Assembly: GCA_015680685.1 (NCBI GenBank)
Contig: MNCI01000542.1
Location: forward strand, 561,889-625,888
DNA: 64,000 bases
From: Gnetum montanum
Taxonomy: Eukaryota; Plantae; Gnetophyta
Reading direction: 5' to 3'
Made by a program: the position numbers and the translations under genes. Under the pieces are notes generated by a model that saw only the letters and a program-made list of their open reading frames with translations, did not search any database and had not been told where the DNA came from. Below are positions 15,313-57,809 of this stretch, piece after piece; position 1 is the stretch's first letter; the number at the start of each line of letters is the position of its first letter.

Positions 15313-15490
15313 GCTTCCTTGATTTTGTGTCTTGTAATATTGTGTCCCAATTTTTTTAAAGCACCACTACAACATGTATAAGTCCATTTGTTTGTTTGTC
15401 TAAGTTAGTCAATAATTCCATAGCTTTCCAACAATTTTTTGTAAGGAACTTATTCCTCATTTTGTTTACCTTGAGGATGAGTTTTCATTT

Positions 15491-15503
15491 AGTTGTGGGG
15501 GTA
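15491..15503 (+). promoter_or_regulatory. Polypurine tract of D
   Basis: TTGAGGATGAG...AGTTGTGGGGGTA abuts the 3' LTR, the typical Athila context. Confidence 0.8.
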
Positions 15504-28014: not shown

Positions 28015-28210
28015 ATGGCCTTGAAGAGAGGAGCAACATGAGGATCCTTACATTTTGCAAGTAAAAGACCCAAAGGCCATGGAAGAGGTTGAATAGGAGA
28101 ATAAGATCCACAAGCAGAACATGTAGAATAGGAGGTTCAATCTTTCAGCATTAATTAGGAAACTCATGTTATCAAACATTGGGCCTAAGGGGAGGCAGAA
28201 GAACCACAAG
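28015..28210 (+). pseudogene. Env-like ORF of C, 5' piece (before insertion A)
   Basis: GATTGTAG|ATGGCCTTGAAGAGAGGAGCA matches the D ORF start GATTGCAG|ATGGCCCCAAAAAGAGGAGCA. Confidence 0.75.
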
Positions 28211-29502
28211 TGTAATGATGGAAAACGTCGATCGCTGGAAATACCGAACGAAAGTCCGTGTACACAGTTCTAACCCCGGATCCGTGCGAGGACCGTGCTG
28301 GAGAGAAAAACGAATCCGAGGTGCCCTGAACGGTCTTGTCGATCAGACAGGGACTTATTTAATCAGTAAAATGTTTGGTAATAATTTGATGGCAAAATGA
28401 AGATTCTTTATAAGGCGGTGCAATGTTGTTAATCCCGAAAGCAATTGAAGACAATGCAAACAATTTAGATGAGATTGCCAAATCCGTATAACTAGGATGC
28501 AAAGGATCAAATTTTGTAGAGAATACAATCACAAGATCTGGGATTTAACTTATGAAAAATAATATGTTTGATACAATGATTTCAGGCGGGCTTCGGTTTG
28601 GACGAAGCACATGCTAGTAACAAGAAAGTTATCTAAAGATGAAACAAGCGAGGATCAATCTACCTTGATCTAGCCAATCTGGGCGTAAGGAAGTTAGACC
28701 TGGGGGAGAATATTCGGTAGCTAATTGTTTCTGATCAAGAATTCTTGCCAATCACCTCTGACATTCTCTTTTGCCAACCTTGAAAGAAAAATTTTTGCCC
28801 ACTCCTTTGATCTTCGTCAACTGGAGCATTTATAAGGTTAGGGTTAGGAGAAAAACGCGGTTTAAGTGACGCGTGTCTTGAACTCATAAATGCCGTTGAC
28901 TCAATGTGTTGTCATTGAAGCTTGCGACGCTATGCTGCGTAGCGCGTCGTAAACTACCCTCGTGCGGGCTTTGGCAACAGACTGTCCTTTGATTACGTTG
29001 TAATACGCTAGAGAGCGTATTGTGGCGTATGAACTACTAATGTCTGAATTGTGCTTGTCGTTACTTAAATTACGCTGTATTACACTAAATTACGCATCAT
29101 AGCGTAATTCAGCGTAAAATAACGAAATCGCAAAAGTTGAAGTATTGTTACCGTGCTTCCTCTGTTTCTGATTAATCCCTTTCGGGGTTTTATTATGCCG
29201 CTTTGCGTTACACAGCGTAATGGTCCCCCTTAGCCATTTTTTGATGTCGTGGTAGACTGTCTTTGATATTATGCTGCGTATCGCAGCATTACGCTATGTC
29301 GCGTAATGCAGCGTAATGTACTAAATGTTGAGATTTTGGAACATAGAAAACTCGCAAAGTGGAAGAGTTGCTGCCGTGCACCCATCGTTTTGTTCTGTCT
29401 CCTGAAGTTTATCTGTACTGTGTTGCGCCTTGTCGTGACTTCCTGCTTGGGTCGCTAGATTTTGCCGATCCTTCGAGGCTTCAAAAATTTTATGGTGTTT
29501 CA
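28211..29502 (-). repeat. 3' LTR of A (1,292 bp)
   Basis: Direct repeat of 44266-45582, lacking a ~24-bp segment present at ~44821. Confidence 0.96.
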
Positions 29503-29514
29503 ATGGCCCCTCTT
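29503..29514 (-). promoter_or_regulatory. Polypurine tract of A
   Basis: Minus strand AAAGAGGGGCCAT abuts the 3' LTR. Confidence 0.85.
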
Positions 29515-30786
29515 TGTTGACATTTAGAGGGCTTGCCCGAAAGACATCGACAAAGAATATGAAACACCAGAGAGGTAAAGGCATCAACAACGTCCGTCGA
29601 AAATTGCTCAAATGTCGCTTTATCAAACCTGGGAGTGCCAAGGTAGGGTAGGGAAGGAAGCATAGAAGGGATTTTACAAGAGTAAAAGGAGGGAGGTTCG
29701 AGGAAGACTCAAGCATGTGAACATGAAACTTTTGCGAAAAAGTTATAGCGTCCTTCCACGAATGCATTTGCGAGAGGTTACGCTGTCATACTGTATATGG
29801 AGGGCTTGCGCGGACGAGTTGTGTTACACCCGCGTGGCCTGGATGAGCTGTTTTACATCCATTTTGCCAAACTTTGCCCCCCCCTTTTTTTTAATTACAT
29901 TCCACTTAGGTGAGTTGCGTTACGCTAGTTCATGGACACGAAGATGCAAAAGAGTGTTGCTTGAATATTCACGCTCTGTACAAGCAAAGCAAGAGGTAAC
30001 AGTGGTCATGAGGACAAAGAAAGGGGAAAACGAAATAATGGATCAAATGGAGGGAGAGGTAGGGTTTGCACTCCTAGGTGGCCAGGCTAATCTGAGCAAT
30101 CGCTTCGGGACGCCACGACACCTTACCTGCTAATGAATGCACTCTCGATCAACGCTGTTGTAGCAAGTAACCTGCAAAACACAACAAAGAGCAAAGCGCA
30201 GAAGCAATCGTCCTAATCGCTAAGGAGGGAGGTTGTTGAAACAAGCACCATCCAAAGCGAAAAGGAGAGCGCAGACTATGAAACAAGGACCATGACGGGG
30301 AGCAAGCGTCCCAATGTTGGTGCTGCGGTTCATGAAACCACCGTCGACAGCCAGATTCATGTTGCCCCAATGATTGGGCAAAGAAGAAGTCAAATGAATC
30401 TGCTAGGTCGGAGTTCGGTGACGGCGATGGATGGAGCTCGCTTAGACTGCGGATGACCACAGTTTCTTCGTGGTCCTAAGCTGCAAAATTGATCCCAGGA
30501 GGTGCAGCTACAGAGCGGTTGTTGTAGCAACATCTCTGAGGGGTCAGTAGTATGCCTTTCGACATGTCCGAGGAATCAGCAGAATGCAGACGAGGTAATG
30601 GCGTTGTGTCTGTCCTAACGCCTTACCCGTTTCGTCTGGTAGGGATGCTATGCAAGAATGACCACGCTTGCTTGCTTCATGGAATGCTTGGCCGATTCCA
30701 ATTTTGAGTCCTGGTTGACTATCGTTGCTCGTTTTAAGCCTCAGCAGGCCATGGTCCAGGTTTAACGTCTAGGAAGACTACAATCT

Positions 30787-31055
30787 ACTAGTTTTACGTC
30801 GTAGCGGACGGTGGAAGGGCTAGTTTATGGTCCCAGCAGACCATGCTATGGGTGTCAGTTTTATGTCGTGACCCAGGGACAAGTCTGTGCTGATTTAGCG
30901 TCTCAGCAGACGTATGCTTACCTTGCCAGTTTCGCGTCATGGTGGATGGTCGAAAATTTTGCCAGTTTAGCGTCTTGGCGGATGCGTGCAAGAAGTGCCA
31001 GTTTTACGTCGTGGCAGACGAGTACAAATTTGCCAGTTTTACATCATAGTGGACG
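30787..31055. repeat. Eight-unit array (24-nt core plus 8-12 nt variable linker) just after the pol stop of A
   Basis: Core GCCAGTTTTACGTCGTGGCGGACG (variable) starts at 30787, 30819, 30854, 30889, 30925, 30961, 30997 and 31032. Confidence 0.8.
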
Positions 31056-31087
31056 TCTGTTACCTTGCGTTTGCGCCGAGTTGATGC

Positions 31088-32300
31088 TTAGGCGTAATAT
31101 TGTTTCAAGTACAGATGGTTCACTAGGTTTGAGTGCTCGTTGCCGTTGATGTCTGCTAACTTGAATGCTCCATTGCCGTATGGGCTGATGACCAGGAAAG
31201 GACCTTCCCAGTTTGCAGAGAACTTACCTACTGGTTCATGAATGGCCTTGAGAACTAAGTCTCTTTTCTTGATCGATCGTTGATGCAGGTTGTGCCGATG
31301 CTTCTCTCTCTGTTTATCCTGATATCTTTCGATGGTGTCGAGCGTCTGGATGCGTTTCTCCTCTACCGAATCTAAATCCACAATTCTAGACTCATAGTGC
31401 TGAGTCTCATTTATAACCATGGATAGGACCATTCGCAATGAGGGAACCTGTAATTCCAAGGGCAGCATTGCTTCGGACCCATAGACTAGGCTGTAGGGTG
31501 TCCTGTCTGTAGCTATTTTACACGTTGTACGATATGCCCATAGCACGTAGAGGATTTTTTCATGCCATCATTTTTTGTTAATACTGAGCATCTTCTTAAG
31601 TAGATTGATAATCACTTTGTTTGTCACTTCTGCCTAACCATTTGCTTGCGGGTAATAAGGTGAAGAAAAATATTACTTGATACCAAGGTTATCGCAAAAA
31701 GATTTGGTTTCTGTGCTACTAAATTGTGGCCCATTTTCGATCACAATAGTCATAGGGAGCCCAAATATAGTTACAATATTATCTAAGATAAAATGGCAAA
31801 CCTGTTGAGATGTAATCTTTCGTAGGGGGATAGCCTCGACCCACTTCATAAAATATTCGGTGGTGGTGATAATGAAGCTATGTCCTGTGGAAGATTTGGG
31901 TGCGATAGGACCTATGATGTCCAGTCTCCATCGTTGGAATGGCCAAGTGATCTGTGTAGTGTGCAACTCAGTTGGTGACACGTGTATTAGATTTGCGTAA
32001 TGATGGCATGTGTCACATGTTTTAACCTTGGCAAGGTAGTCTTTTTCCATGTACGGCCAATAGTACCCTAGGCGTCTAATTTTAGTGGTCATTGCCTATG
32101 GGGCTACGTGTCCTCCGCATAGCCCTTCGTGGACTTCGTTAACTATTTGCTATGCTTGGTCGTTGTTAATGCAGGTAAGCAATACCCCATCGAAAGAGCG
32201 TCTACAGAGAGTACTGTCTCCAAGGATGATGTATTGCTTGGCACGCTTGTGCACTGCATCCTTTTGCGCATGTGTTAGCTCGTGCGGTGGTTCGCCATGC
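31088..32300 (-). pseudogene. pol: Integrase of A
   Basis: GYYWP..C..C zinc-binding part, WPFQRWRLDIIGP, EYFMKWVEAIP, ENGPQF, LWAYRTT, GKFSANWEGPF; interrupted by stops. Confidence 0.95.
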
Positions 32301-32362
32301 AGAAGGTAAGTTTTAATGTTGTCATACCATTCTAACGTTCCTTCTGTGTTTAATGAAGAAAT

Positions 32363-32812
32363 TTACGTTGCTTGGATGACAGGCTCTGTACATTCTATCA
32401 TTAAAGTGGGCGAAGTCGTAAACAAGTGTGGCGGCACGTTTAATGGCAGTGTTGCCAGTGCATCGGCAACAGCGTTTTCGTTGCGCGGCACATGTTGGGC
32501 ATCGATTGTCACGAATTGTTTCAGGAGATCTTTAGCCATATCATAGTAGGGTTGTAGGCGCACAGCCTTGTAGGCATAGACTCCTATGATTTGATTGATG
32601 ACAAGCATCGAATCACCTCGGATTGCTAGGTGTTGAACTTTAAGTTCTCTGGCTATCAACAATCCTCTAAGGAGCCCCTCATACTCTGCCACGTTGTTCT
32701 TACAAGGGAATGTCAGGTGGTAAGCTGATGGATGCACATCCTCAGGGGTAAGCGTAATGACAGCGGCAGCACTGCCACCTCTAGTAGTAGAAGCTTCGTC
32801 GAAGTATAACAT
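32363..32812 (-). pseudogene. pol: Additional archaeal-type RNase H (aRH) of A
   Basis: LYFDEAS, NNVAEYEGLL, GDSMLV and HVPRNENAVADALA are the diagnostic Tat aRH motifs. Confidence 0.93.
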
Positions 32813-32926
32813 CGCTTCGAGGCCTGTTGATATAGGGCTTAAACTATGTACATGCTCATCTGGGAATTCTGGCTCTATCGTAGCTTGATCTTTAGTGGGC
32901 GATGTCGTTAGCTGATCAGCTATGGC

Positions 32927-34584
32927 CTAACCTTTTGTGGATGATTGGCCAACATAATGTAAATCAAATTCGGCTGTGATGGCCTTCCAACGAGCTATCC
33001 TGCTACTCTCATATAAGTTGTTTGAGATAGCTCGCAGAACATTGCTTTTACAGATTATATTGACCTGACTACGGAAAAGATAATGCCTACATTTTTTAAG
33101 TGCGAAAACTAATGCCAAACAGTTATTCTCTACTTCATTGTACCTTGTCTTGTACGTAAATAGGGCGTGATTGAGGTAATAGATAGGGGTTTCAGGCCCA
33201 TCGTTCCTTTTTTGGCACAGTAATGCAGCTATGGACATGTCTGAGCTAGCTAGATAGATGTAAAAAGGTTGATCTCTTTGTGGCGGGAAAACCATTGGCA
33301 AATGTTGTAGCTTCTTTTTTAAATCGTCAAATGTATTTAAATCGTCAAATGTATGTTGGCAGTCATCAGTCCATTCGAAATTAACACCCTTCTTAAGAAG
33401 GTGTTGCATGGGATGTAATTTATTTGTTAATTTCGAGATGATCCGCTTGATGAACTGAAGCCTACCCTGTAACCCACGTAGTTCCTTGAGGTTTGTAGGT
33501 GGCGTTAAATCAATGATGGCCTTGACCTTGTCGGGGTTGACTCGGATGCCAGTTTTTGATACCACAAACCCCAACATGCATTTGGTTTTGACTCCGAATA
33601 CGTATTTCTTTGGGTTAAGTTGCAAGTCATGCTTAAGACATTGTTTAAGGACTAACTACAAGTTTTCTGAATGATCTTCAGACTTTATAGACTTGACAGC
33701 TATGTCATCTACATAGTCGTTCAATCTCCCTAAAAGGTAGTCGCTAAAGATGTATGTCATGACCCGTTGATATGTCGCCCCAGCATTTTTTAGCCTAAAA
33801 GGCATCATAGTGTAACAGAAGGTCCCCCAGGGTGTCATGAATGTTGTGGTCAACTGATGCTTCGGGTTGATGTGAATTTGATTATAACCTGAGAAACCAT
33901 CCATGAAGGATAGAAGTGCGTGACCAACTGTTGTGTCCATCAGTTGGTTGATACTAGGTAACAGGAAATTATCCTTAATCGTAGCTTTGTTCAGATCCCG
34001 AAAGTCTATGCAGATGCATATACCTCCCGTTTTCTTAGAGACAACTACGATGTTGGACACCCAGTCTGAGTAATCGACCGCGCGAATGAAACCAGCTTGA
34101 TACAACTTGGTGATTTCATTACGCACAATTAGCGTAATTTCTGGCTTAATCTTGCATGCCTTCTGTCTAATTGGTTTGATGCGTGGGTCTAAAATTATGT
34201 TATGCTGTATTAATCTCGGGTCTAATCCCGGCATGTCTTCATATGACCATGCAAATACAGCAACATTGTTTTGGAGTACTCGCGTTATGCCACTCTGTGT
34301 TTGTTGGTCTAAAAGGGAACTAACTCTAAGAGTTTTATTCTCACCTTTGTGCGTAACCACAGGGACCTTGTCGAGAGGATCCTCGGTCACATCACCAGCC
34401 TCCAGGTCTAGAGTTCGGGCCAAATGTTCTGGCCAATCTGGGGATAGTTCCGACGTTACTATGGTTGCGTCACAAGGGGTAGGTTCTGTTTCTATCAGCA
34501 TGTAGTTAGACTGTCTAATGGTCTCCTCGTATGGGCTTGTTAAGGCTAATGGTGTGGATAAAGCTGCATCCATTTGCGAATCAC
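32927..34584 (-). pseudogene. pol: Reverse transcriptase and RNase H of A
   Basis: CIDFRDLNKA, SFMDGFSGYNQI, MPFRLKNAGATYQR, YVDD (33704-33715), LNPKK, and RH motifs PIYY...CLALVFALKK. Confidence 0.96.
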
Positions 34585-35007
34585 CTTGCAAAAACATCAA
34601 AAAAGGAAGTTGTTACATTGTTTTTTCTGCTAATCGGTTGAGCGATAAGAGTTTGTTTTTGTCTTTTTAGCGTTAAAGAGGCTTCCAGTTTAAGGTCTTA
34701 GTGGACCGTTACAATAAGATAATAACGAGCTTGGCTTCCTAGATGCTGGCGTATGAAATGAAATGAAAAGTGTAACGTGACGTGTCTAGCGTGTTGTGAA
34801 ATTTGAATTTCTGTACAAATCGTAGTTAATGCGACCGGATTACGAGATGATAAATGTATTAGTTTAAGATCATTTCGGACCGCAATCTACATGATATCAA
34901 CAAAATTAATGCCCCAATCTTTGCGTTTCATGTCATATTGACATCGGCGTTTCGGGAAAGTTCCGCATCAATCGGACAGAAAGAAAAAATTAGTTTCAAG
35001 CATTTTG

Positions 35008-35015
35008 TTTATAAA
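35008..35015 (+). promoter_or_regulatory. Candidate TATA box of the nested antisense gene
   Basis: TTTATAAA lies ~120 nt upstream of GCCATGG (ATG at 35136); supported by position only. Confidence 0.35.
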
Positions 35016-35135
35016 CTGATGGTTCATACTCGAGACGGGTTACAGATATCGTGAATTTGGATTTTGGCTATAGTAGAAGAGGAGCAGAAGCAAGAAGTAA
35101 ATAGGAGATTTATGAAAAGTTATTCGATTGTAGCC

Positions 35136-38100
35136 ATGGCACCAAAGGTTAAGGGAAAGAATGCTAAACTGGCCAGGATTGACGAAGTGCAGGAGAGTTT
35201 GCAACGGGCTTCGCTGGCCAGAGTCGAAGCCCGGGAAGCTACTCCGCTTAACCGGTAAGTGGTTGTTCGCCCTTTTGCACTATTGTCATATTTGTTGCAG
35301 CATCATAGTTGTGTATTGTTTTCCCGAATGTATATGTTACGTTGAGCGTTAATATCTGTTTACGCAGGCTGAGCGATTGTGGTTTGCGGTATTACCTTTG
35401 TCTTTGCTGTTGGAGACGAACCTTATATTGTCACGAGGGTTTAGGTAATGTTGGTATTATATGTTGTAGGTAGTGTAATCAGGGTTTTGTTTTCCTTTCA
35501 TTTATTCCCATAATAGTTGCATGTTACGCTTGAATAATACGCAGCGTTGCCTTCATCACCGTTGTCAGAGACAGACCTTGAGCTGTTGCAAGGGTTTGGG
35601 CGATTCTGGCCATGCGTTTCCAGTGAAATCTGCAATTATCAGGGAATCAGGCGAACCTTATTATAGCATGATGAATGTTTATGTTCAAATGCTTTGTCTA
35701 ATGGCAACATGTTTTCATTGTATAGTATCATGTTAAAGCTCGTCCTAATCATTTTGGACATTGTGGGCGTTTTGTGCTACATGCATATTCTAGCGGCGAA
35801 TGTTCCTCCCCCTCATGCTCGTATAAAGAGGGAGGCGGTATGGTTCCAAAGAGGCACGCTGGAGTTCCTACAGTTTCTGCTTCGTAACTACAGCATAATT
35901 GTCTGGTCGCATCTACTAGGTGATATAGCTATCGCCATTTTGGAGATGTTATTGGTTTGTTCGACGCAGGGCGTCTTGGGGTTCTTGACAGATGGCAGGA
36001 TTGAGACTGCGTGGGTGCAAGACCGTGAACAAATCACCAAAGATCTGAGGTGTTTGAGTTGGATCTGGGAGGTGCCCAGATTCAACTGCTATCACTCCTA
36101 CAATACTTTGTTCATGGCTTGTCACCTCACGAACTATTTCCAGAACCCCCTGGTATTGTGTATTACGCTAACGGGTAAGAATCTAAATTTTTGTAGTTTC
36201 GATGTGTGTCAACATGCTAACTGTTGTCTGGATCTACGTTGAGCGTAAAGAATTTTCCCATTTTCTGTGATGTAGGTTCTTTATCAATGACAGCGGTCTC
36301 TTGGGCGATAATGATACCTTGTCATTGACCGAAAGGGCTATTAGTGAATTTACTACTATTAGCAATGTATGGGCCGTTTTCATGGAACAACTAGCGTTTG
36401 AAATTCCAGAGTACCCGACCTGCTATGCTGACTTCTTTGCTAGATGTAAAAATTTCGGATGGCTGGATAAGGAATGGGCCTTAGATCCTCCCCTCATTGT
36501 CACCGACGTGCGAAGGAGAATCCCTCCATTTCCTTTGCCATTCAGACCTGGTAAACTTCGTTACGATGATGAATTGTATCAATGTTATTAATTAGCGATG
36601 ATTTGTGAAGTTGTCTTATTTTATTTTTTTTGCAATCTTGACTTAGCCATTGTTTTATGTATGTAGTCAGGGAATCACGGGAAATCACGATCATGGCCTC
36701 CGTTCGCGACGCGAGTAATATCTTTTTCCGCTACGGTGACATAAAGGAGGCACAATGCTGGCTCAGCCATAGAGTAGCCCCTGCTATTTTGACCAATAAC
36801 CTTCGAGAGGCTGGGCTAATGGACCTGTTCTTGGCCATAACCCCTGATGTTACCGTGGGTGAAATGTTGACCCTAGTCAACTCCTTCAGTGAAGAAGCCG
36901 AGCGTCTCTGCGTACGCGTGCGTAACGTGGCGTAAATTTTTAACTCGATGCTCAGCTGTTTGCTGATCTCTTCGAGGTCCCCTCTGATGGCTTTCCTATA
37001 GAGGAAAAGTCGAAGAGGAGCGCCAAATGCCAAGAAGGGATAGAGGAGTGGCTAGGGGTTAAGAAAGAGGCCAAAGGGATTCCTACCGACGAGATTGAGT
37101 TGGCAGTGGCCCACACCATTTACCCCCTTTTTTGAGCTTGGACCTTCCCCAAGACACTCTCCCAAGGGAGATTCCTCACTATAGAATAAGCTCGCATTAT
37201 GCGAGAGTTCATGGAGGAGGGAACACAATTCAATTGGGCCAGCTATTTTGCTGAAGGCCTGCACGTTGAAATGGTCAAGCTTCGCAAGAAGCTTGAGTCC
37301 CATTTCAACGTGCATTTTGCCTTTTTCATAGCTTGCTTCCAGTGCTTTGCCGAGTTTCTAGTTGTCCAACGGGATGGAGTTTGGATGCAGCAGGACTACG
37401 GCCAGATTTATAAACCATGGATTTCTCATATTTTCGGCATCGTCCGGTTGCAGGACCCTTCTGAAGAGATCGGGGAGTCGTTATCTGTAATGACTAGGGA
37501 CATGGTGGCACCTCGAATGCGGGGTCCAGACAGCGTGGGTGGGGCACTCCCTTCCTATACTGGCAATGCTTCGAGGGGGAAGTGCCTGGCGGCTGAGATA
37601 GTGGACCTGTCGGTGCCTCGGAAGAAGCCTCGTTTGACCAAGGAGTCTGCCGAGCCAATAAGTAGTGCAAGGTAGAAGATGCAGGTCAAATTTTGGAGGA
37701 GTAATCCTCCAACAGGTAAGCAAAGGAACATGCTAATGGTTACATCCATGTTGCGTATAGATACTTTTATGTTGCAATTTATTGAACTATAGCAGAATTT
37801 CGTGTTAACTGGAAACATTATATGACAACGAAGGAGAGGGTTGTAGAAAGGTTAACCCCTAAAATAGGGGCTATGGTTTTATGATGCGGGGAGGAGACCC
37901 CAGCCTTGGAAGAAGAGGCTGCAGCAGTCAATCAAGCAAGTAGCACACAGATTCCTACGCGTGAGAAGGGAGAAGCCATGGAAGATGCTGAAGTTCCTTC
38001 GGCTTAGACAAGAAGAGGTAAATGATTTGTAACTTTGTTAGGCTAACTTTTACAGCGTACTCAACTCTAGGCAATTACTTCTAAAAGTTATATTGGTCAT

Positions 38101-39516
38101 CGTAATGTTTCAATTATGTCTTCATATGGAACTTGTTCTACATAATAGGCAACCATGACGTGCACATGTCAATGGTGGCAACTCGATCCTGGGACGAATT
38201 TCCTGATAAATTCGCCTTTATGGAAGGGGCCGTTCAAGACATGATCGGCCGCTTGGAGCAAATCAATCCTGAAGCAGGTACATCATGATCATTACGTAGA
38301 GGTTGTTCCATTGTGGTATTGTGTTATCTAATTATGTCTAATCACTATGCTATGTTATTAGGAGCTCAGCTTAGGTGGGATTCGTCGGAGCCTATTGATC
38401 TAGACACCACTGAACCCTCCTTGGAAGAGGTCATCGTGCCATGCAGCATTTATGATGAAATGCGTAAATGTGTGGTACGCTCGACTCGCTCCTTGTGGGA
38501 ATGCCAGAAAGTAAACGAGGATCTTTGGAAAAGATTGCAAAGGTCGGAAAAAGACAGAGTGTCTCTAGGTGATCAAGTGGGGGACTTGAGGTCTCGGAAT
38601 GAATTCCTGCAGGCTCAGGGGACAGGCAACTAGTACTGGCGGATGACTGTTGTGGACTACACTTGTTATTGGATGGTCATCTGAAACAGTGTCCAGACTA
38701 GTCGTGAACTGGTCGAGCAGCGGATGCAAATGGACCTCCTAGCTCAAAAGAATCAAGACTGGAAGGACTATAGTGCAAGTGTGCAAAAATGGGGGCAGAC
38801 GCAAAAAGATCATAAACACGTCTATAAGCAGGACTACGCTGCCTACCATCAGCAGTATAGGGACTCTGCCATTGAGGCTTAGTCTCTTCGACTATTCCTT
38901 GACGTTATTGGTGCTTCTAGTGCATTTGAAATGTTCCAGGAGCAAGTACGGTGAGCGCCTCTCCAGAAAGGGAAATAACTCTTCCTGGAGGAGAGACGAC
39001 CATCCCTTCCTTCTTTCTTGAATCACCTCGCTAGACTCCTATGGAAAAAGGGAAGATGAAGGTCAGAACTAATCTAGGAGACGGGGTTTGGTCTGAGCTT
39101 ACCGAGGACGAGATTATGCAACATCTGTGGATTGGCTTAGAACAAATTCCATTTGCTACTGATGCAGGACCATCACAAGTGAGTGTTTGTTTTATTATGC
39201 CTTTTTTCATACCTGGTTTTGATCGTGATGTCAGTATACATGTTATGTATGATTACAGGAACGACCTGAGGAGGTTCCTCAACGAGGCGAGCGTAACATG
39301 GATGACGGTCCTCATGAAGGGGGTTCGTAAGGGACAGAGCTTAATGGCGGTGGTCAACGTGATGGCAAACAGCTTCATACAGGAGAGCCTGATAAGGGGG
39401 GCCACCTTCATGAAGAAATGCTACCTGAAAAAGGTGGCCCTTATGAGGACGATTTGCTCGGGGTGGAGATTGAGCTGAGGGACACGGGTGATAGTGGGGA
39501 AAGAGGAGACGCATAA
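35136..39516 (+). pseudogene. 10-exon antisense accessory gene nested in pol of A (FCP1/NIF-like HAD domain + retroelement extra-ORF domain + coiled coil; ~1,170 codons)
   Basis: Exons 35136-35254, 35368-35444, 35545-35650, 35726-36174, 36276-36550, 36667-37715, 37793-38017, 38149-38277, 38362-39178, 39259-39516. Nine introns of 75-131 nt (8 GT-AG, 1 GC-AG); 8 of 9 junctions are in phase unedited. Three 1-nt frameshifts and about 12 in-frame stops. Confidence 0.8.
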
Positions 39517-39719
39517 CGTGGTTGTATTGGCCACAGTCCGTTTTTTTTATTTTTATGATGAGAAAGATAATATTTTTTTATTTTTGACATTTTAATGCAA
39601 ATTTGGTCTAAGTTAATGTTCTTTATTTGTTACTATTCTCGTTTTATGCAAAGTGTAAATTAGTAGGTTTTGATGTTATGAGAAATGGCAGATAGTTTAG
39701 GTGTATAGCGTAAATGAAG

Positions 39720-40098
39720 TTACTAGTTTAAAGTCATTGCAGGCTATTGGATAAATAGGGTGCAAAGCGTAAATAAGGCAACTAGTCTTGGGCCATTTCA
39801 GGCCTTTGACCAGTTCAAGCGTAACCTGCAATTTAAATAGGTAGTTTAAGGCCATTGTGGGCCATAGGTAGTTTTAGGCCATTCCGGGCCGTGGGTATAT
39901 GGTGAAGGGATAGCGTAGATGTCACTAAGTAGCAAATTTTAAGCCTTGGTGGGTTGTGATTAGTTTAAGGCCATTTCGGGCCTTTTGATAGTTTTAGGCC
40001 ATTCTGGGTCGTGTATAGTTTTAGGCCATTTCGGGCTGTGTATAGTTTTAGGCCATTTCGGGTCATGTATAGTTTTAGGCCATTTCGGGCCATGGGTA
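39720..40098. repeat. ~27-bp tandem repeat inside the PR-RT interval of A
   Basis: TAGTTTTAGGCCATTTCGGGCYRTGTA occurs as five contiguous copies at 39961-40098, with looser copies from ~39720. Confidence 0.88.
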
Positions 40099-40329
40099 GC
40101 ACACGTGATTAATTTTAGATAAAGTTAAGAGCAATGAAGATAACTAGTAGGGGCGTAAAAACATGAGCGTAAATGAGAACAACTAGTGGATGTGTAAGGT
40201 GGGATAGCATGATGAAATAAAACATGCATAAACTATACGGTAATCAGATGATCCTGTTTACTGGCTAGCCCTGTAATTGTTTCCTGATCGCTTTTATTTT
40301 TGGTAACGCGTAAAGACGAGGAGATTTAC

Positions 40330-43300
40330 CACCCTTTTCCTTCGCATCGCACTTCTCTCCTGGGAATGGTAGCTTGGCCCAAGTTAGGCTGTCATCAGCC
40401 ACTGTTTCTTCTTGTTCGAGTATTCGGACAGGGGACTGATCTTTAGACATTTCGATCTCCGACCCCTGCTCCGTTTCTATGTTATTCATAGCCTGAGGGG
40501 TTATTTCATCACCATGGATAACCACCTCTCCTCCTGCGTAAGGCAGATGGATCTCTTGATGTATAGGTGATGAAATTGCCCTTAGTTGAGCCAACCATGA
40601 CCTCCCCAGGATCAAATTGAAGCCAGGCATCTCTTCAAAAATAATGAAGGTTGCATCTGTGCGGAATTGCTTCCCCGCCACGAAGTTGATGTGCATAGTG
40701 CCTTTGACTTGCACTTGTGCCTCGTTGAATGACTTTAAACACGACGTAGTGGTAGGACTGATCTAATCGATCAGACCTAGCTTATCCACTATGGGGTAGG
40801 GGATGACATTAGTGGCCGCCCCATCATTCACATGTACCCTCCGAATTCGGTGTTGACCAACCCGAATGGTGATGAACATGGGCGCTGTTGTCACATGACC
40901 CTTTTCTGGGTCATCCTTAATGGATTCGTAGCGAAAGGTCAACAAGGAAGGCCCTGGTTTCTCAGCCGTGAGAGGAAGCATAATGGAATGAATCGCTTCT
41001 TCATCCACGAGCAGGCCTTCGTCCATAGGTATGGACATTAGCATGTGAACCATAGCCTCATAATGCTTCTGTGACATCATGAGTAAGTCATAAAGGCTCA
41101 GAGTTGTATTTCTTTTATTTTAGAGCCTGTTTGACTTGTGTAAAGGCGTCGAAGAGATCCTGCCCGTGATCTGGCTGATTGTCACCCTTTTCCTCTTCCA
41201 TTCGCCCTAGGAGATGAATTTCTTAGGGAGGAGTGATATTTGGCCAAGGGCTGTGCTTCTTTCTGCCAGGAGTAGATGGTTGTGTTTGCGTAACTTCACC
41301 ATCGTTAGAAAATGGGGCCAAGAGTACAGAGGTGAGGGGTTTAGGCTTAGGAAACCCCAGCGTAAGACGATCCTTGGTCGTACCAGTTGTCTTATCTCCT
41401 TCTCCTTTTTCGTTAAATTGGGATCGAAAGCTTGACTTGGAGGTTTGCCCTTGTGTAGGAAGGGCTGTCGATGGTTTTGGCACCCTGATGACGAAGGGGG
41501 CCTTAGGCGTAGGCATGGGCTAGGCCGTGGCTTTATCGACAGTGGGTTGTCGAGAATTTATCTGAGAAGGGGCTCGAAGGATAAAAGGTTATCGTGGAGC
41601 ACCACTTGTCGATGCTGTTGAATCCATTGTTTGGGGAGAACGAGGATGCGTTCGTAGCACGAAAGGGTGTTTCAGTTGTGACTGATTATCGCCCTCTGCT
41701 CCTACCACGTTAATTGTGTACCCTGCGTTATTTGTATTTAATGGGTCTTGGTACACATGCAAGGCTTTGTTTTCCAGGTGAGCTGGGATACTTCTGTCCA
41801 AGATCAGGTCACCTTGATCGATCATGCGTTGAATGTCATCTTTCAATGCCCAACAGTAATCCATGTCATGACCGCACAATTGATGATAGTCGCAGAATCG
41901 GTCTATTCTAAAGTTCTTGGGAATGGGCGGTTCATTAGGTTGTGCCAAGGAGGGGTTCTTGAGTAACTCACAATGGTGCCTGTGATGTTTTAGGGCCTCC
42001 TCAGACACTGCCTTATGTCAGATGTGACCAGTTCCCAATAATTGCTTCAGAAGTTCTGAAGGCTTCATAGGTAGAGTTGCGTAATTTGAGCAGTCCTTAC
42101 GCTCAAATTTTGGCCTCGGCTGTGGGGATGTTTTAGGGGCAGAAGAAGCTTCTTGATCAGTGCCACTTGAGCTAGTTGTCGGCTCAGTTGGCTCCGCAGT
42201 AGTTTTCTTGCTATTGTTGTTCTTTTTCTTAGCCCCTTCAACAACCGCCGCAACTGTAGTCGTCGTGGTTTTGCCTTTGTCCTTACCCTTGCTATGGGCA
42301 TGTTTGTAGGCCACATACGTTGGATCTTTACTAGCCTCTGCCACATCTTGGATGCTCTTAGTCTGAGCAAAGGCTTGGCTGAGAGAACGGGGAGCGAGGT
42401 AATACAACTTAGACTTGATGAAGTCATTGACCGCTCCCTTGAAGATTGCGAATAGATGGGCCTCCACGATGGGTTTGCGGATCTCGTTCAAGGTAGTGCT
42501 CCAATGCTGTATAAAGTTTTGGACTGACTCGAGTGGGTCTTGTTTAACTCTCATGAGTTGGTCTAGTGTGACTTCTGGCTTCAGGTTATATTTGAAATGA
42601 GTTACAAACTGGGTTAACAACTCTTCTAAGGTTGAGATGGAAACGCATGAAAGTGCTTGATACTAGTCCAAAGCTTTGCCCGTTAAGGACATAGCGAAGA
42701 CACGGATTATAGTATGCGACCATTGTTACAGCAATAAGGACTCTGACCTAAAAGTGATGAGGAGGGCGTTGGGATCACCTTCCCCATTGTATTTTATGAA
42801 ATGGGGAAGGGGCATCCCAGGTGGCAATGACAGGACTGGGACTGCTGGGCTAATAGGATCGTCATGGTAGAAATCCATGATTTGTACTGTGTCAGAGCTA
42901 GCAGCCTTGAGATGCTTGACCTCTTCTGTAAGGGTCTGGATGAGTTGGAAGGCTTGGTCTAGACCCGTAGACGATGAGGTCGTTTGTGGAGCGGAAGGAG
43001 GAGCCACATTGGGTGGCGATACAGAGGCAACAACTTGGCCGATGGTCGATGCTATCGGGAGAGTCCTTGCAGGCAGTGTTGCTTGTGGCATCCACCATCT
43101 GGTGGTTGGTGCAGATGGGGGACCCACCATTGGCTGCGCTATTGGGTATGCTATTTGTGTAGCGGGAGGAGCAGCGATCCCGTAGCTGGGTTTAGCGTTT
43201 GTGGGACTTGACTTTGATGGTGAGGATGGTGGTGCATTTGCGCAAGATGCACAACAAGAGACATGTTGGGAGCCCACCATGTTGTGGTGGCAGGCCCTAT

Positions 43301-44008
43301 TGTGTGAATGGGAAGCGTAGTCGGCGTTGTAGGTATCGCGTGCACATGCGGTGGCACAGGCGCAGGCACACGATGAGGCAAGTTAGGTAATCGCGCCTGC
43401 TGAGGAATGATCTGTGATGGACCATCACCTGGGAAGATAGTCGGAGAAAGAAAATGTAAACGCAGTGAATTCAGGACTCGATCGGTGTTAGATAATGTCA
43501 AAGGTGTGGTGACCATGAACAACGTATTTACACGAGATGTTGTGGAGGGAGGGGCCATGGTGAAATCGGCATGACTACCTCCCTCAGAGTGAGATTCTAG
43601 ATCGTCTTGTCCGTCGTGAAGCATTTCATCACGGAACAAGGCCTTTAGTTATTTTGGCGATGTCTTTGCCATCAACATTTGATCTAGGATCCACCTCTGT
43701 TGATCTGTCAGGGGTATGAAAGTGCTAGGCATAGGAATGAGTTCCTTCCCGTTGCAGTACATGAACTCGTACTCTCGTCTTTCCTCGAGCTCTTGTGGAT
43801 ACATAGGCAAATTTGCTACTAGCTTAGCATAGAGGAAATTGTAGCTTTCCTTGCATTGAGCCTGTCCCTCAGGCTTCTTGTTTTGTAGTTTGAGGGAGTG
43901 GCGTGGTCGCACCAGACTGAGTGGTTGCTCGACCATGGGAGGCATGACTTGCATGGTCCAAGGGTTCTCAAGGCTAGTGGTATCAACGACAGTAGTTGAT
44001 GTAGTCAT
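40330..44008 (-). pseudogene. gag: gag and protease of A
   Basis: FIKYNGEGDP and Retrotrans_gag-like helices, Tat-type knuckle FCDYHQLCGHDMDYC, protease RRVHVNDGAATNVIP and FNLILGRSWL. Mostly one frame broken by stops, with two frameshifts. Confidence 0.92.
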
Positions 44009-44241
44009 TTTTTTACGTGATTCGGAGATAATGACGATAAAAGCAGAGATTGGAAGGACAAAGGTGAACTAAGATAATAATCGGGGCTTTTTATCTTGTA
44101 GGACTCCAAAGGAATCATCGAAGCAACCGATCTACACCACATAATTTTGTAAACAACCTTGAAGGTATTACGTTTATGTTGATTACTAATGGGTACAGAT
44201 AACTTACAAGACTACCCATAAAATATGGATCAGATATGAAG

Positions 44242-44259
44242 GCCCTCCTTCTAGCGCCA
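44242..44259 (-). promoter_or_regulatory. PBS of A, complementary to the plant tRNA-Asn 3' end
   Basis: Minus strand TGGCGCTAGAAGGAGGGC sits 6 nt from the LTR; plant tRNA-Asn(GTT) ends ...CCCTCCTTCTAGCG-CCA (recalled). Confidence 0.85.
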
Positions 44260-44265
44260 GAAAAC

Positions 44266-45582
44266 TGTAACAATGGAAAACGTTGGTCGCTGGAAATATC
44301 GAACGAAAGTTCGTGTACACAGTTCTAACCCCGAATCTGTGCGAGGATCGTGTTGGAGAGAAAAACGAATCTGAGGTGCCCTGAACGGTCTTGTCGATTA
44401 GACAGGGACTTATTTAATCAGTAAAATGTTTGGTAATAATTTGATGGCAAAATGAAGATTCTTTATAAGGTGATGCAATGTTGTTAATCCCGAAAGCAAT
44501 TGAAGACAATGCAAACAATTTAGATGAGATTGCCAAATCCGTATAACTAGGATGCAAAGGATCAGATTTTGTAGAGAATACAATCACAAGATTTGGGATT
44601 TAATTTATGAAAAATAATATGTTTGATACAATGATTTCAGGCGGGCTTCGGTTTGGACGAAGCACATGCTAGTAACAAGAAAGTTATCTAAAGATGAAAC
44701 AAGCGAGGATCAATCTACCTTGATCTAGCCAATCTGGGCGCAAGGAAGTCAGACCTGGGGGAGAATATCTGGTAGCCGATTGTTTCTGATTAGGAATTCT
44801 TGCCAATCATGTCTGACGTTCTCACGATCGCTGATTCTCTTTTGCTCTTTTGCCAATCTTAAAAGAAAAATTTTTGCCCACTCCTCTGATCTTCGTCAAC
44901 TGGAGCATTTATAAGGTTAGGGTTAAGAGAAAAATGTGGTTTAAGTGACGTGTGTCCTAAACTCATAAAATGCCGTTGACTCAATGTGTTGTTGTTGAAG
45001 CTTGTGACGCTATGCTGCGTAGCGTGTTGTAAACTACCCTCGTGCGGGCTTTGGCAATAGAATGTCCTTTGATTACGCTGTAATACGCTAGAGAGCGTAT
45101 TGTGGCGTATGAACTACTGATGTCTGAATTGTGCTTCTCATTACTTGAATTACGCTGTATTACACTAAATTACGCATCCTAGCGTAATTCAGCGTAAAAT
45201 AACGAAATCGCAGAAGTTGAAGTATTGTTGCCATGCTTCCTCTATTTCTGATCAATCCCTTTAGGGGTTTTATTACGCCGCTCTGCGTTACACAGTGTAA
45301 TGGTCCCCCTTAGCCATTTTTTGATGTCGTGGTAGACTGTCTTTGATATTATGCTGCGTATTGCGGCATTACGCTATGTCGCATAATGCAGCGTAATGTA
45401 CTAAATGTTGATATTTTGGAACATAGAAAACTCGCAAAGTGGAAGACTTGCTGCTGTGCACTCATTGTTTTGTTCTATCTCCTGAAGTTCATCTATACTG
45501 TGCTGCGCCTTGTCGCGACTTCCTGCTTGGGTCGCTAGATTTTGCCAATCCATCGAGGCTTCGAAAATTTTATGGTGTTTCA
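44266..45582 (-). repeat. 5' LTR of A (1,317 bp)
   Basis: TGTAAC...GTTTCA, adjacent to the PBS and followed by TSD ACAAG. Confidence 0.96.
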
Positions 45583-45587
45583 ACAAG

Positions 45588-48162
45588 TATAAGGACAATG
45601 TCTCACGCTATCACCAGATTGCCTCTAAGCCATCTAGGAGAAATCAATCTTGACTACAGTGATCATGGAGCTAAAATTTAGCCCATTTGTAGAATTTGTT
45701 TTAGAAATGGTGAAGACACAAGTCCAAGCATCACCGTTATGGCCCACGCTCTAAAACAATGGAGAATGATATTTGGAGAAGACCTATCAATTTTGGCATA
45801 ATAAAGGAGAAGATGCAATAATTAACATTAAGGAAGTCTCAGTTTCCTATTTAGTTAAGGTGATAACTGAAGCCATTAATGTACCCAACAAAGGGGCAAG
45901 AGTAGCACATCTGTCCACCATATTAGAAAACTGCGGTTGTGAAGGGCATATGGCAAAGAAGACAAGAAGTATAGTGAGTTAACTCTTGAAGAGAGAACTT
46001 ATTTTAAAATTGATAAATATCACATATTTCCCATAAAAAGACTATCCATGTATGCAGCTAGAGGAAGTGAGATCCTAATGGGGAAGTATAATACAAACCT
46101 TACATAACTCTACTTCATGGAGATCCAAAGGTGGTTTGAGAAAAAAAGGTAGGGAAGTTGACACTTCCATTCCCTTGCCTAATTAAGAAGTTGTGAAAAT
46201 GTGCTAAAATCTTGGGGGTACACCCATGATATCCTTAGAAAGGCTCAAAATGCTTTCTATGTTGAGATGCTCAAGCCAACACCACCAAAGAAAGATCAAA
46301 TGGAGGAACAAATAGATGTTGGGGAAACCACACAAACTACCATACAACAACAGCAAACATGATCTAATGGTCAATAGCAAGAGCAAAAATAGCAGTAACA
46401 ACAATAGCAAAAACATTAGCAAGTTCCACCACTGGCATTGTAGGATTATAGGCCATCAGTGAGTCATTTGCAATAGATTACAAAGACTATCAGTTGTGGA
46501 ACATGTGAGGAGGCTAACCTCTAAAAAGTCATTGACAGTGCCATTCAACTAATAGTTTCCATAGATCTTGTCAATGAAAAAATATCATTGTAGTTAGGAG
46601 AAGAGGATCAATGATCACAATAGATTTTTGGGAATGTGGCATTGTTCCAAGTGGTGCTTGAAACTGGAGAAGGATCCATGGTCATGGTTATGTAGCATCA
46701 GGATGCAGTAGGAGTAGTAGAAGTGATCATGGCTTACATCAAAGAATCATTCAATGTACCTGTTGTGCCACCAGTGGATCTAACTAGAGCTAGGAATGTT
46801 CAAATACTAGTTGTCATCTCAATGACTCATGTTGATCATGAAGATGTGCTAGATCAACTAATGTAGATTGGGCAAGTTATGATAACTCTTTTCAACATTC
46901 CAAGTGATGTTACTGCAATGTAGTCAAAGTTAATAGCAACCAAGGGTAAGCTGGTCATGGCAGAAGCCAGGGAATAGCATGTGTAAAATGAAATTCTTAG
47001 ACTACAAGAAGAGCTCGTGACCTTGAGGGTTGAACGTAGAGATCCTACATAATATGTTGTGCCTGACCAGCTAAAGTAGTTTAGAATAGAATAGATCAAT
47101 CACTTGATAGAGAAAAATAAGTAGATGGACAATGAGAAGAAGAACGTGGTGTGAAAATCCTCAGTAGCAAAAACATAGACATATGCACATGTGAAGGCAC
47201 TCACTATAGCATACGAAGAAAATAAGCAACTAGCTGTAGATAATATCAGGTTGACTAATGTAGAGAAGTAGAAAAACATCCTTGAGGAGAGCATTCATTA
47301 GTTGAGATAGCAACTGATAAGAGTTAACGAAGAAAAGAGTCAATTAGCAAGAGAAAATAGAACCCTTTTAATGGAGGAGGTACATGCAATTAGATAAAAA
47401 TAAGCTATTGAGATAAGCATGTAGCAGAATGAATCAAAGAAGCACAAGAGGCTCAAAGAACATTTCCACAATCTGGTGGGCATGTATAATAAAATTAATG
47501 AGAAGGAAATCCAAATGAAAAAATCCTAGATCAATTCCATATCAGCATAAAATCTAAATTGGCAACCCATCTTGGATAGTTATGCTCATGTCCACCAAGT
47601 AGAGAAAAAAAATAAAGACCCATGGATAGAAGATATGAAAGAATACATGGGGTTAACTAACGTTCAGTATGCTAACCTGGCCATGTTGACAGTAGGTAGG
47701 CCCAGAATTGAGCTTGAATAACAAGTAGCAGCCACATATGCATTATACAAAAAGAAGTTTGTATATAAAAAATTGCTCTATAAAAGCTCCATGTAGAAAA
47801 ATCGAAGTTAGAAGCAGTTAAGGCTAGCTACCAAGGGTAGAAAGATGTTGCAGTGAACCTGGCCAGAAGAATGTCTGATTATTAGGAGTTATGTAAGATG
47901 GAGAGGGCATTTGAAGAAGAGACAAGACAATTTGTAGCATAGTATGTCAAGGCTAATTATATGTTCCCACAGCTGCCATGTCTATGGGATGTACCAGCTT
48001 CATCATACATTGCACAACAGACATAAATGGTACATGATCCTAGAATAGAAAAGGAAAAACTTTAAGCATTTCTCAACAGATACAAGTTTCAGAAGCCTGA
48101 TGATAAGGGGAAGTAACGGATGGAGGAGCCACCACCACCAGGCACTACTTAGCCTACAGTGA
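45588..48162 (+). pseudogene. Env-like ORF of C, 3' piece
   Basis: Collinear with D 12820-15312 (e.g. INIKEVSVSYLVKVITEAINVPNKGARVAHLST); riddled with stops. Confidence 0.8.
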
Positions 48163-48916
48163 GCTTCATCCAATTTTTTTTGTTTTATTTTAGTTTGTCT
48201 TGCCATGTCTTGTGTCCATTTTTTAAAACACCACTGTGAAATTTAGTATCATGTATATAGTTAAGTCATTCATGTAAATCTACCTCTTAATTTTGTAAGG
48301 GATTCTATCCTCATTTTATTTTAACTTAAGGATGAGTCTTCAATTAGTCATGGGACTATGGTAAAGTTGAATTTTAACAAGAAATTAATTGTAACTATGA
48401 TATCATAGATTCAATATTGTAACTACAATATCATAGATATGATATCGTAGCACAAGTTATGTCATTGTATATGTGATATCACAAGATGCGTGCCAGCCTA
48501 TAAATACAACACTTAGGTGTACAGATTTGAAATAAGTTTCAGTCCATAGTAACAAAACTCTTTTAGTTTGTTTTTGTGAATTTAGTCTTAAGTACTTAGA
48601 AGTGTGAATGCTAGCAGTGTAGTGTGACTTAGTGAACGTAGTCTTTATTCGAACATCTTATACTTGGGTGCAAGTATGACCAGCAATAAAGATTGAGCTA
48701 TTTCATACTATTGTAGCATTATCCTAGTTTGCTACTTTACCTAGAATAATGTTTACCATTTCACTTAGACTATTGATTACTGCTTTTCTAGTCAATGTTT
48801 TATTATTTCATGCACTTTACTTTTATTGTTGTTAGTATGCAGAATTGATATGATTGATTTCAAGTGTAAAGTATGATCATTTGGTAAACTAGTAGTATTA
48901 TTACTTGGTTTGCCCA

Positions 48917-57660: not shown

Positions 57661-57789
57661 ATTGTTATTTGATTCGGTGTGCTATTTAACTGTTATATAA
57701 ATTTTTTTGTTTAATTAACCCTAAGGGTTCGTTTAAGCTCCCAACGATGTGGATAATTTCCTATGTTCTACTTAGCGCACAAACACTTA

Positions 57790-57808
57790 GTCCCTGGCAA
57801 CAATGCCA
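57790..57808 (-). promoter_or_regulatory. PBS (tRNA-Asp type) of B
   Basis: Minus strand TGGCATTGTTGCCAGGGAC, 1 nt from the LTR. Confidence 0.85.
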
Positions 57809-57809
57809 A

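Follow-up and report, generated by a model that had tools for sequence, protein, structure and literature searches.

The window analysed here is a 64,000-nt stretch of contig MNCI01000542.1 of Gnetum montanum. It contains a 17.4-kb Tat-type Ty3/gypsy retrotransposon with both ends intact, which is the host of a ten-exon gene located antisense to it, on the + strand, inside the gap between the protease (PR) and reverse transcriptase (RT) regions. This position had been proposed in the initial annotation and is borne out by the layout of the element, which is as follows:

28206..28210, target-site duplication (TSD) ACAAG, left copy
28211..29502, - strand, 3' LTR (TG...CA), with nine GCGTAA copies
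29503..29515, - strand, polypurine tract
31088..34584, - strand, pol (RT, RNase H, aRH, integrase; Pfam RVT_1, RT_RNaseH, RVT_3, rve), a single frame with 8 stops and 0 frameshifts
34585..40329, - strand, spacer of 5745 nt, a candidate Ogre-type pol intron with predicted splicing (donor 40329; acceptor 34585 or 34564; all phase 1, in frame)
34858..34882, + strand, lone 27-nt array unit upstream of the gene, oriented as in the downstream array
39837..40094, + strand, 27-nt tandem arrays downstream of the gene
40265..44010, - strand, gag-protease, with 8 stops and 2 frameshifts
44243..44259, - strand, primer-binding site (PBS)
44266..45582, - strand, 5' LTR, with eight GCGTAA copies within the first 510 nt
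45583..45587, TSD ACAAG, right copy

The K2P distance between the two LTRs was 0.061 (66 transitions and 9 transversions). The PR was recognised by its motif and by tblastn to relatives, the PR region being without a Pfam match, and the PBS is presumably a match to tRNA-Asn.

The aRH was detected by RVT_3 (E 3.8e-19) between RT_RNaseH and rve, which is the "retroviral" domain order of PMC13468544. In a quick RT tree (49 of 85 rows once near-duplicates were removed), the element formed a long branch that shares an unresolved fork with loci of Ogre type and with loci of contiguous pol, the best identity being 56%; on this quick tree and long branch, its RT fell outside a 34-row clade (support 100) of Ogre-type loci and Lathyrus and Vitis proteins. 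The RT search retrieved no close named RT by which to place the element among Tat J, K, and D (gymnosperm/fern, retroviral order). The initial annotation had compared the element with Tat/Retand elements. The first half of this comparison stands, as pol contains an aRH and the RT groups with Tat elements, whereas Retand was ruled out by the missing antisense TRP28 ORF and by the 5.7-kb PR-RT gap, PR and RT being contiguous or split by one stop in Retand (REXdb table). The 1.6-kb stretch between pol and the 3' LTR, in which four ORFs were scanned, contained neither an antisense TRP28 ORF nor a second recognisable accessory gene. It represents a deep branch of Tat whose layout is Ogre-like, and it is not a Retand.

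The resemblance to Ogre (a Tat element of pea and Medicago) consists of a Gag-PR frame ended by a stop, followed by a non-coding gap and then RT-RH-aRH-INT, together with a 5-bp TSD and a large size; furthermore, the best-scoring RT loci retrieved were mostly Ogre-type. The differences are that the gap of 5745 nt compares to an Ogre average of 274 bp (PMC6317226) and contains a gene; that the PBS differs from that of Ogre-type loci (a tRNA-Arg PBS is present in 89% of Ogre); that the RT is not part of the well-supported Ogre-type clade; and that Ogre carries its extra ORFs either 5' in sense or 3' in antisense orientation (REXdb supplement).

The gene in the gap was resolved into the following parts, all on the + strand:

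35136..35254, exon 1, with the ATG at 35136 and a Lys/Arg-rich N terminus
35255-35367, intron 1, 113 nt
35368..35444, exon 2, Cys-rich
35445-35544, intron 2, 100 nt
35545..35650, exon 3
35651-35725, intron 3, 75 nt, GC-AG
35726..36174, exon 4, predicted FCP1/NIF (HAD) phosphatase-like domain, with a frame break near the 3' end
36175-36275, intron 4, 101 nt
36276..36550, exon 5, open
36551-36666, intron 5, 116 nt
36667..37715, exon 6, central domain, with one frame break and 4 stops
37716-37792, intron 6, 77 nt
37793..38017, exon 7, with 2 stops
38018-38148, intron 7, 131 nt
38149..38277, exon 8, open
38278-38361, intron 8, 84 nt
38362..39178, exon 9, coiled-coil-like stretch, with 4 stops and one frame break or tenth intron
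39179-39258, intron 9, 80 nt
39259..39516, exon 10, acidic and of low complexity, with 1 internal stop and the TAA at 39514-39516

All nine introns of the initial annotation were located at the lengths given there, although its donor list omitted the GC donor of intron 3. The exons sum to 3504 nt or 1168 codons, in agreement with the approximately 1,170 codons annotated from the ATG to the TAA, and the 3' region beyond the TAA is T-rich. The introns are 33% GC and 42% T, and the exons 49% GC. When the 14.8-kb element interior was scanned for introns without regard to frame, using general splice-site frequencies, eight of the ten top + strand candidates were introns of this gene (six exact and two with the donor shared; the GC-AG intron was missed), whereas no - strand candidate inside the insert scored above 5.6, compared to 7.5-13.0 for these introns. 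The break cost of the joined exons was 18.5. Simulated sequences (n = 60) required 43.6 +/- 4.4, with a minimum of 33.5, which places the joined exons 5.8 SD below this null, and the unspliced strand required 39. A possible tenth intron at 38946-39034, which is less AT-rich (AT 0.48) and in phase by hand count, is an alternative to the third frame break. An extra intron at 36932-37001 was discarded as out of phase by hand count, and other donors for intron 4 were rejected by hand. The gene is real.

Reading through the gene required three frame breaks (at the end of exon 4, at about 36924-36943, and at about 38928-39034) and 11 stops. The initial annotation, in which a single inserted C opened the frame, had therefore understated the decay. 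The number of stops per site lying one C>T or G>A change from a stop was 11/127 for the gene and 8/95 for pol, and the total break density of the gene did not differ from that of gag plus pol (p=0.19). The stop load of the gene thus matches that of pol, which indicates that, at the insertion of this copy, the frame of the gene was open to about the same degree as that of pol.

The product of exon 4 is predicted to be an FCP1/NIF phosphatase-like domain, and this is the only firm domain call in the protein. Similarity to the FCP1/NIF HAD domain was found with Atlas (0.92; 29 of 30 matches NIF, 191 shared features, recognition 3558) and with Pfam NIF (E 0.0021, 18.2 bits, below the curated cut-off of 21.8). 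The catalytic motif of such domains is DxDx(T/V), of which this decayed copy has the first Asp and lacks the second. For the central domain, Atlas gave plant hypothetical clusters at 0.90-0.92 and DUF1985 at 0.87 on a 63-aa piece, with a low recognition score and below the Atlas threshold, and Pfam, run up to an E of 1, gave no match there, neither PF10536 nor PF09331. The middle of the protein is possibly PMD/DUF1985-like, but this is a weak lead. In the whole product there was no Pfam match to TRP28 or PMD and no DNA-binding domain above threshold. Exon 9 encodes a coiled-coil-like stretch by a crude heptad score, and its weak Pfam matches to NRN1, PA2201_N, and DUF5767 were read as coiled-coil noise. 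Homologues of exon 4 were absent among longer and near-length proteins, the central domain had one low-complexity match only among 1.84 billion representatives, and no homologue of the gene was found in metagenome and viral contigs, among PDB sequences, or in 650 ORFs of 80 retrieved loci. Rfam gave no match, and single-sequence folds were uninformative (pLDDT 54 and 40).

The relationship of the gene to the element family was evaluated using reads and related loci. RNA reads, mostly less than 90% alike, covered the gene at 0.5-0.9 of the gag-PR depth in 4 of 4 runs. The read differences in exons were without gaps and fell at third codon positions in 25 of 46 cases (p=0.003), as counted by eye in four of the six listed loose-end cells in exons, two having been dropped because they did not align. 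In DNA runs from two other studies, 0.28-0.42 of the query's words were present, compared to 0.28 of the query outside the spacer, and three of the four runs were above the bound. The strand direction in the one RNA run with a clear bias was identical over gag, pol, and the gene, and so the RNA reads may derive from host pre-mRNA. Among distant relatives (RT identity at most 53%), 43 of 45 had PR within 1.8 kb of RT, without a homologue of the gene. A renewed search found no TIR, TSD, or LTR around the gene, as had been noted in the initial annotation. Taken together, the matched stop load, the hexamer found throughout the element (see below), and the diverged relatives with third-position bias indicate that the gene is very probably an integral passenger of the element family; these three lines are indirect, and the original proposal to this effect is partly supported by them.

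The hexamer GCGTAA occurs 51 times in the window, and 44 of these matches lie inside the element, which makes up 27% of the window. Together with the overlapping AGCGTA, it was the top enriched word in the insert alone and, separately, in the element without the insert. Neither this word nor the FCP1/NIF-like domain had been noticed in the initial annotation. The gene body contains 8 copies compared to 1.1 in shuffled sequence, and the insert 14 compared to 1.7; none of 300 shuffles reached either number. The density was 1.8 per kb in the gene and 1.4-1.7 in gag and pol, whereas it was 0.13-0.22 in the flanks, and there was no excess in the flanks or in two neighbouring elements. It rose to 6-7 per kb in the LTR and the PR-side spacer, compared to 1.4-1.8 in the coding parts. 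Six copies lie around the 27-nt arrays (39708-40313), the array unit itself being without the hexamer. A short word is thus over-represented in its own element, as for VANC targets, and at least one control locus (L023) out of 25 was studded in a similar way. By this analogy the protein of the gene might recognise GCGTAA in a VANC-like manner (anti-silencing or activation), which is the leading suggestion for its role but a tentative and rather doubtful one.

In Ogre, the PR-RT region is spliced (PMC6317226, PMC4408406). Here the PR frame closes at a stop 21 codons beyond the candidate donor 40329, which is in phase and is the best - strand donor within 630 nt downstream of the PR active site. 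Acceptor 34585 had a poor score, ranking 68th of 859, and several other AGs close by are in the same phase, so that the in-frame PR-RT join is weak evidence. Without the spacer, the PR-RT distance would be 828 nt, compared to 1.04-1.08 kb in contiguous relatives; the PR and RT frames were separated in 25 of the 28 relatives checked and contiguous in 3. No RNA read crossed the pol intron or any of the nine gene introns, at a depth of 0.3-2.2 that is too shallow for power, and the joints listed in the RNA mapping were all within tandem repeats and were taken as mapping artefacts. On balance, the gap is probably spliced from some element transcripts as an oversized Ogre-type pol intron.

We therefore propose that the gene is a long-standing passenger in an Ogre-type pol intron, with a protein possibly recognising GCGTAA, and we give this account as a whole a probability of about 0.7. 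In this model the genomic RNA would be packaged unspliced and then reverse-transcribed. Because the introns of the gene lie backwards on the element RNA, they would outlast each cycle; this protection by antisense orientation follows from known retrotransposition logic. Removal of the gap from some element transcripts only would fuse Gag-PR in frame to RT-RH-aRH-INT and so yield Pol, and transcription of the gene, on the opposite strand, would start from a promoter within the 550 nt preceding its ATG. We predict the protein to be a nuclear regulator, possibly reading GCGTAA across its own element. The most specific form of this model seems improbable, although not negligible: a non-angiosperm Tat lineage that would carry, antisense in a giant pol intron, a ten-exon anti-silencing gene combining a PMD/DUF1985-like GCGTAA reader with an FCP1-like phosphatase domain, and would thereby achieve VANC-like self-recognition at no cost to Pol or to its own introns.

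The reading of the exon-intron structure as chance in decayed non-coding DNA is extremely improbable: the protein and locus searches gave no homologue and 14 breaks must be read through, but the frame-blind intron ranking, the break cost 5.8 SD below the null, the strand-specific T-rich introns, the recognisable domain, and the third-position bias argue against it. A real gene could also have arrived as a one-off or recent insertion, by entry of a host gene or an accessory gene of a DNA transposon (MULE, CACTA, or Helitron) into the PR-RT intron around the time this copy inserted. Host genes typically have many introns, as do the genes of DNA transposons such as VANDAL, entry at about the same time would also give a stop load equal to that of pol, and the gene is missing from distant relatives. 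However, the gene is enriched in the element's hexamer to the same extent, there was no sign of a transposase, TIR, or TSD, the 27-nt array unit flanks the gene on both sides in direct orientation, and the reads contain diverged relatives of both exons and spacer, which together make such an insertion quite unlikely.

If the gene is an integral passenger, the gap need not be an intron, because Pol could have an internal start or promoter of its own or be supplied by other elements. An in-frame ATG at about 34573, the weak acceptor, the lack of a joint in the shallow RNA reads, and the distance of a 5.7-kb intron with a convergent transcription unit from the Ogre average are consistent with this, whereas the in-phase donor and a PR-RT length near that of contiguous relatives after removal of the spacer point to splicing, and we consider the non-intron version the less probable of the two. 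A passenger unrelated to GCGTAA has slightly less than an even chance. The word would then mark a site for a host factor, or would have arisen by selection on element RNA or methylation, and the protein would work either as a scaffold or through its phosphatase-like domain, for instance on the tail phosphorylation of RNA polymerase II. This agrees with FCP1/NIF as the sole firm domain call, with the lack of a DNA-binding domain above threshold, and with the motif load of some control loci. Against it, Tat extra ORFs usually encode PMD-coiled-coil proteins (PMC4408406), the PMD resembles the DNA-binding DUF1985 of VANC (bioRxiv 2024.09.27.615353), and, like VANC targets in non-coding DNA, the motif is clustered in the spacer and in the promoter region of the LTR.

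Neither an antisense extra ORF in a Tat element nor the Ogre intron is new. As an antisense Tat accessory gene beside tandem arrays, the gene resembles the extra ORFs of Retand, Grande (gene23), RIRE2, PvRetro13, and gymnosperm TatIII, and it shares with the PMD-coiled-coil eORFs a coiled coil and possibly a PMD-like domain. Those ORFs, in contrast, are found between pol and the 3' LTR, where they are presented as plain ORFs, with neither introns nor an FCP1/NIF domain mentioned in the descriptions consulted. The PR-RT position, the intron load, and the FCP1/NIF domain were not found in the literature searched.

VANC and KIU of the VANDAL Mutator-like DNA transposons are likewise transposon-borne anti-silencing genes with exons and introns (PMC5735166; PMC13317346) and a short word over-represented across their own element, densest in the non-coding parts; KIU has an added captured enzyme domain (Ulp1), as the gene here has a phosphatase-like domain. 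The carrier here is a retrotransposon, however, the DUF1985 likeness is a weak lead, and the word, in a putative target role, is 6-7 nt long, contains CpG, is also present in coding regions, and is not a tandem-array unit. Orchid Ogre-related elements with an AlkB m6A demethylase ORF (PMC9289625) are Tat elements that similarly retained a captured host enzyme domain over replication rounds, but as a separate ORF beside a single Gag-Pol ORF, with another enzyme, the activity of which was shown in vitro. Among host proteins, a PMD works with a phosphatase in silencing control in MAIN/MAIL1 with PP7L and is fused to a phosphatase in MAIL3 (PMC5418596; PMC7156037). These are host genes, and the PMD likeness of the protein described here is putative. 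The partner phosphatase of MAIN/MAIL1/MAIL3 is of the serine/threonine type, a kind other than HAD/FCP1.

What the extra ORFs of Tat elements do has long been an open question (PMC7264820, PMC11963269), and it becomes testable in this element, which pairs a candidate protein with a candidate target word. An intron-rich gene in an element copied through RNA is also a natural counterpart of the antisense-intron reporters used for retrotransposition. Should genes of this sort be common in large non-angiosperm genomes, they would have a bearing on both transposon biology and gene annotation.

The gene lies antisense between the protease (PR) and RT of a complete Ty3/gypsy element of 17.4 kb, whose features are as follows.

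28211-45582, - strand: the element
44266-45582 and 28211-29502, - strand: LTRs, 92.4% identical (K2P 0.061, substitutions nearly all transitions)
44010-40265, - strand: gag and PR
34585-40329: PR-RT spacer, 5745 nt
35136-39516, + strand: the ten-exon gene
34584-31088, - strand: RT, RNase H, second RNase H and integrase in a single frame (Pfam)

The element also has a primer-binding site, a polypurine tract and a target-site duplication of 5 bp. The second RNase H in pol assigns it to the Tat clade and gives it the "retroviral" domain order, which has been described from angiosperms, conifers II, Ginkgo, gnetophytes and ferns (PMC13468544); the host is presumably not an angiosperm. In a quick tree that retained 49 of 85 rows, its RT sat on a long branch at an unresolved fork together with Ogre-type and contiguous-pol loci, its identity to any row being 56% or less, and a database search found no close RT relative. 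Between the integrase and the 3' LTR are a 108-codon sense ORF without a Pfam match (30149-30475, - strand) and a 36-nt tandem array (30924-31042); an 18-nt tandem duplication (33318-33354) lies in frame between the RT and RNase H domains of pol.

The flanks of the element (26504-28035 and 45593-48148) match the interior of an LTR element at 7148-16384 at 65-85%, which places it inside an older copy of that family. The 7148-16384 element (LTRs 85% identical, two scanned ORFs without a Pfam match) is possibly non-autonomous. The pol of a second Ty3/gypsy element (48911-58562, LTRs 91%) aligns to that of the host element with the additional RNase H (aRH) stretch skipped, which makes it either Athila-like or an aRH-less Tat element. 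A decayed 890-nt inverted repeat and a series of short tandem duplications within AT-rich DNA are found at 17693-18584 and 22109-25069.

All nine introns of the initial annotation were present at the lengths it gave, and the exons total 1168 codons from the ATG at 35136 to the TAA at 39516, in agreement with its frame of about 1,170 codons. Its claim that one edit, an extra C, restores the frame was wrong: the frame contains three frame breaks and 11 stops. The introns are rich in T (42% on the + strand) and have 33% GC, versus 49% GC in the exons. When the 14.8-kb interior was scanned for introns blind to frame, with scoring by splice-site frequencies, eight of the nine introns ranked among the ten best + strand candidates. 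The scan missed the GC-AG intron 3, and the remaining two candidates were in the T-rich 3' region and at one pol site. The read-through cost of the joined exons was 18.5, versus 43.6 ± 4.4 in 60 simulated sequences. The gene is real.

Exon 4 is similar to phosphatases of the FCP1/NIF HAD type (Atlas 0.92, with 29 of 30 matches; Pfam E 0.0021, below the cut-off), and the second Asp of the HAD phosphatase DxD motif is absent from this copy. In exon 6, a piece of 63 residues was nearest to unnamed plant clusters (0.90-0.92) and DUF1985 (0.87); the recognition score was low, and we treat this likeness as a lead only. Exon 9 contains a coiled-coil-like stretch by a crude score. The protein and locus databases searched contained no sequence homologue of the protein; as they also contained no close RT relative, they seem to lack this lineage.

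With one LTR counted, the element contains 35 copies of the word GCGTAA versus 5.5 expected, and 44 of the 51 matches in the window are inside the element. When the insert and the rest of the element were counted separately, GCGTAA and the overlapping AGCGTA came out as the top words of each. The gene body contains eight copies versus 1.1 after shuffling, a number reached in none of 300 shuffles, and no excess was found in the element flanks or the two neighbouring elements. The word, often as AGCGTAA, occurs throughout 28211-45582, with LTR clusters in both orientations, and one copy overlaps the acceptor of the first gene intron (35360). A word enriched to a comparable extent was found in at least one of the 25 control loci: the Ogre-type locus L023 (1-18439) carries 17 spaced copies of the CpG word GGCGAC versus 1.9 expected. 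Other Tat elements may also be studded with such words.

Three indirect lines of evidence (decay, the shared word and diverged relatives) make it likely that the gene is an integral passenger of the element rather than a later insertion. Stops per at-risk site were 11/127 in the gene and 8/95 in pol, and the gene, with a third of the codons, has 14 of the 32 breaks, a density no different from that in gag and pol taken together (p = 0.19); this copy therefore inserted with a gene about as open as its pol. Had the gene only recently arrived, a GCGTAA density equal to that in gag and pol would be unexpected. In all four runs, RNA reads, mostly less than 90% alike, covered the gene to a depth 0.5-0.9 times that over gag-PR. 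Among the 24 cells of loose-end reads listed, of 175, six lay in exons, and in the four that align gap-free (the other two did not align and were excluded), 25 of 46 differences counted by eye were at third codon positions (p = 0.003). Four DNA runs of two other studies contained a fraction of 0.28-0.42 of the query words, compared with just 0.28 of the query that lies outside the spacer. A search around the gene bore out the initial report of no flanking TIR, TSD or LTR. One unit of the downstream 27-nt tandem array (39837-40094) also lies upstream of the gene in the same orientation. Against this reading, among 45 distant relatives with both domains, PR was within 1.8 kb of RT in 43 and no homologue of the gene was found, which makes the trait at most lineage-specific.

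The spacer would be spliced out as an intron of pol. Translation of the protease would end at a stop 21 codons past the donor at 40329, the best - strand donor within 630 nt after the PR active site, and splicing from this donor to 34585 or 34564 would keep the frame into RT; the acceptor scores poorly, with several AGs of equal phase nearby. Without the spacer, PR and RT are 828 nt apart, versus 1.04-1.08 kb in contiguous relatives. The two frames were apart in 25 of 28 loci checked, often via a short AT-rich gap; decay may account for part of these gaps. In Ogre of pea and Medicago, the PR-RT region is described as an intron, 274 bp on average, removed from part of the transcripts (PMC6317226, PMC4408406). 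Two Ogre-type loci have enlarged gaps, L004 (5297-10094, 4.8 kb, with tandem repeats) and L024 (3429-6809, 3.4 kb), neither of which contained a match to the gene. None of the joints listed from the RNA reads lay at the nine gene introns or the pol intron, at an insert depth (0.3-2.2, from diverged copies) too low to give this comparison power, and strand bias in the RNA run X11 was equal over gag, pol and gene, and thus gave no sign of a gene-specific transcript.

We propose that the packaged element RNA is the unspliced form, on which the gene reads backwards, so that its introns would be unspliceable and be copied, following the logic of antisense-intron reporters (PMC12786077). Other transcripts would lose the whole spacer and yield Gag-Pol, and the passenger would thus cost Pol nothing. 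The gene would be transcribed from the opposite strand, as is maize Grande gene23, which is read from its own promoter (PMC7264820). A tentative, rather doubtful reading is that its protein is a nuclear self-recognition factor, since the usual Tat extra ORFs encode PMD-coiled-coil proteins (PMC4408406), PMD is similar to DUF1985, which binds DNA in VANC (bioRxiv 2024.09.27.615353), and the short word bound by VANC, which reduces methylation, is enriched in the non-coding DNA of VANC's own element (PMC5735166). By comparison, GCGTAA reaches its highest density, 6-7 per kb, in the LTR promoter region and in the spacer on the PR side, and its link to the gene is putative.

The REXdb classes of extra ORFs lie only 5' or 3' of the polyprotein (PMC6317226), and in reviews covering additional ORFs and Retand elements the antisense ORFs are located between pol and the 3' LTR (PMC7264820; PMC11963269, PMC4093653); the 2020 review among these urges a search for spliced antisense transcripts. 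The terms "eORF", "intron" and "antisense" did not occur in the searched text of two land-plant Tat surveys (PMC10508981, PMC13468544), and the full-text literature searched contained neither a multi-intron gene between PR and RT nor an FCP1-like domain in an LTR element. As a likely integral passenger, the gene is a variant, absent from the literature searched, of the antisense accessory genes already described from Tat elements.
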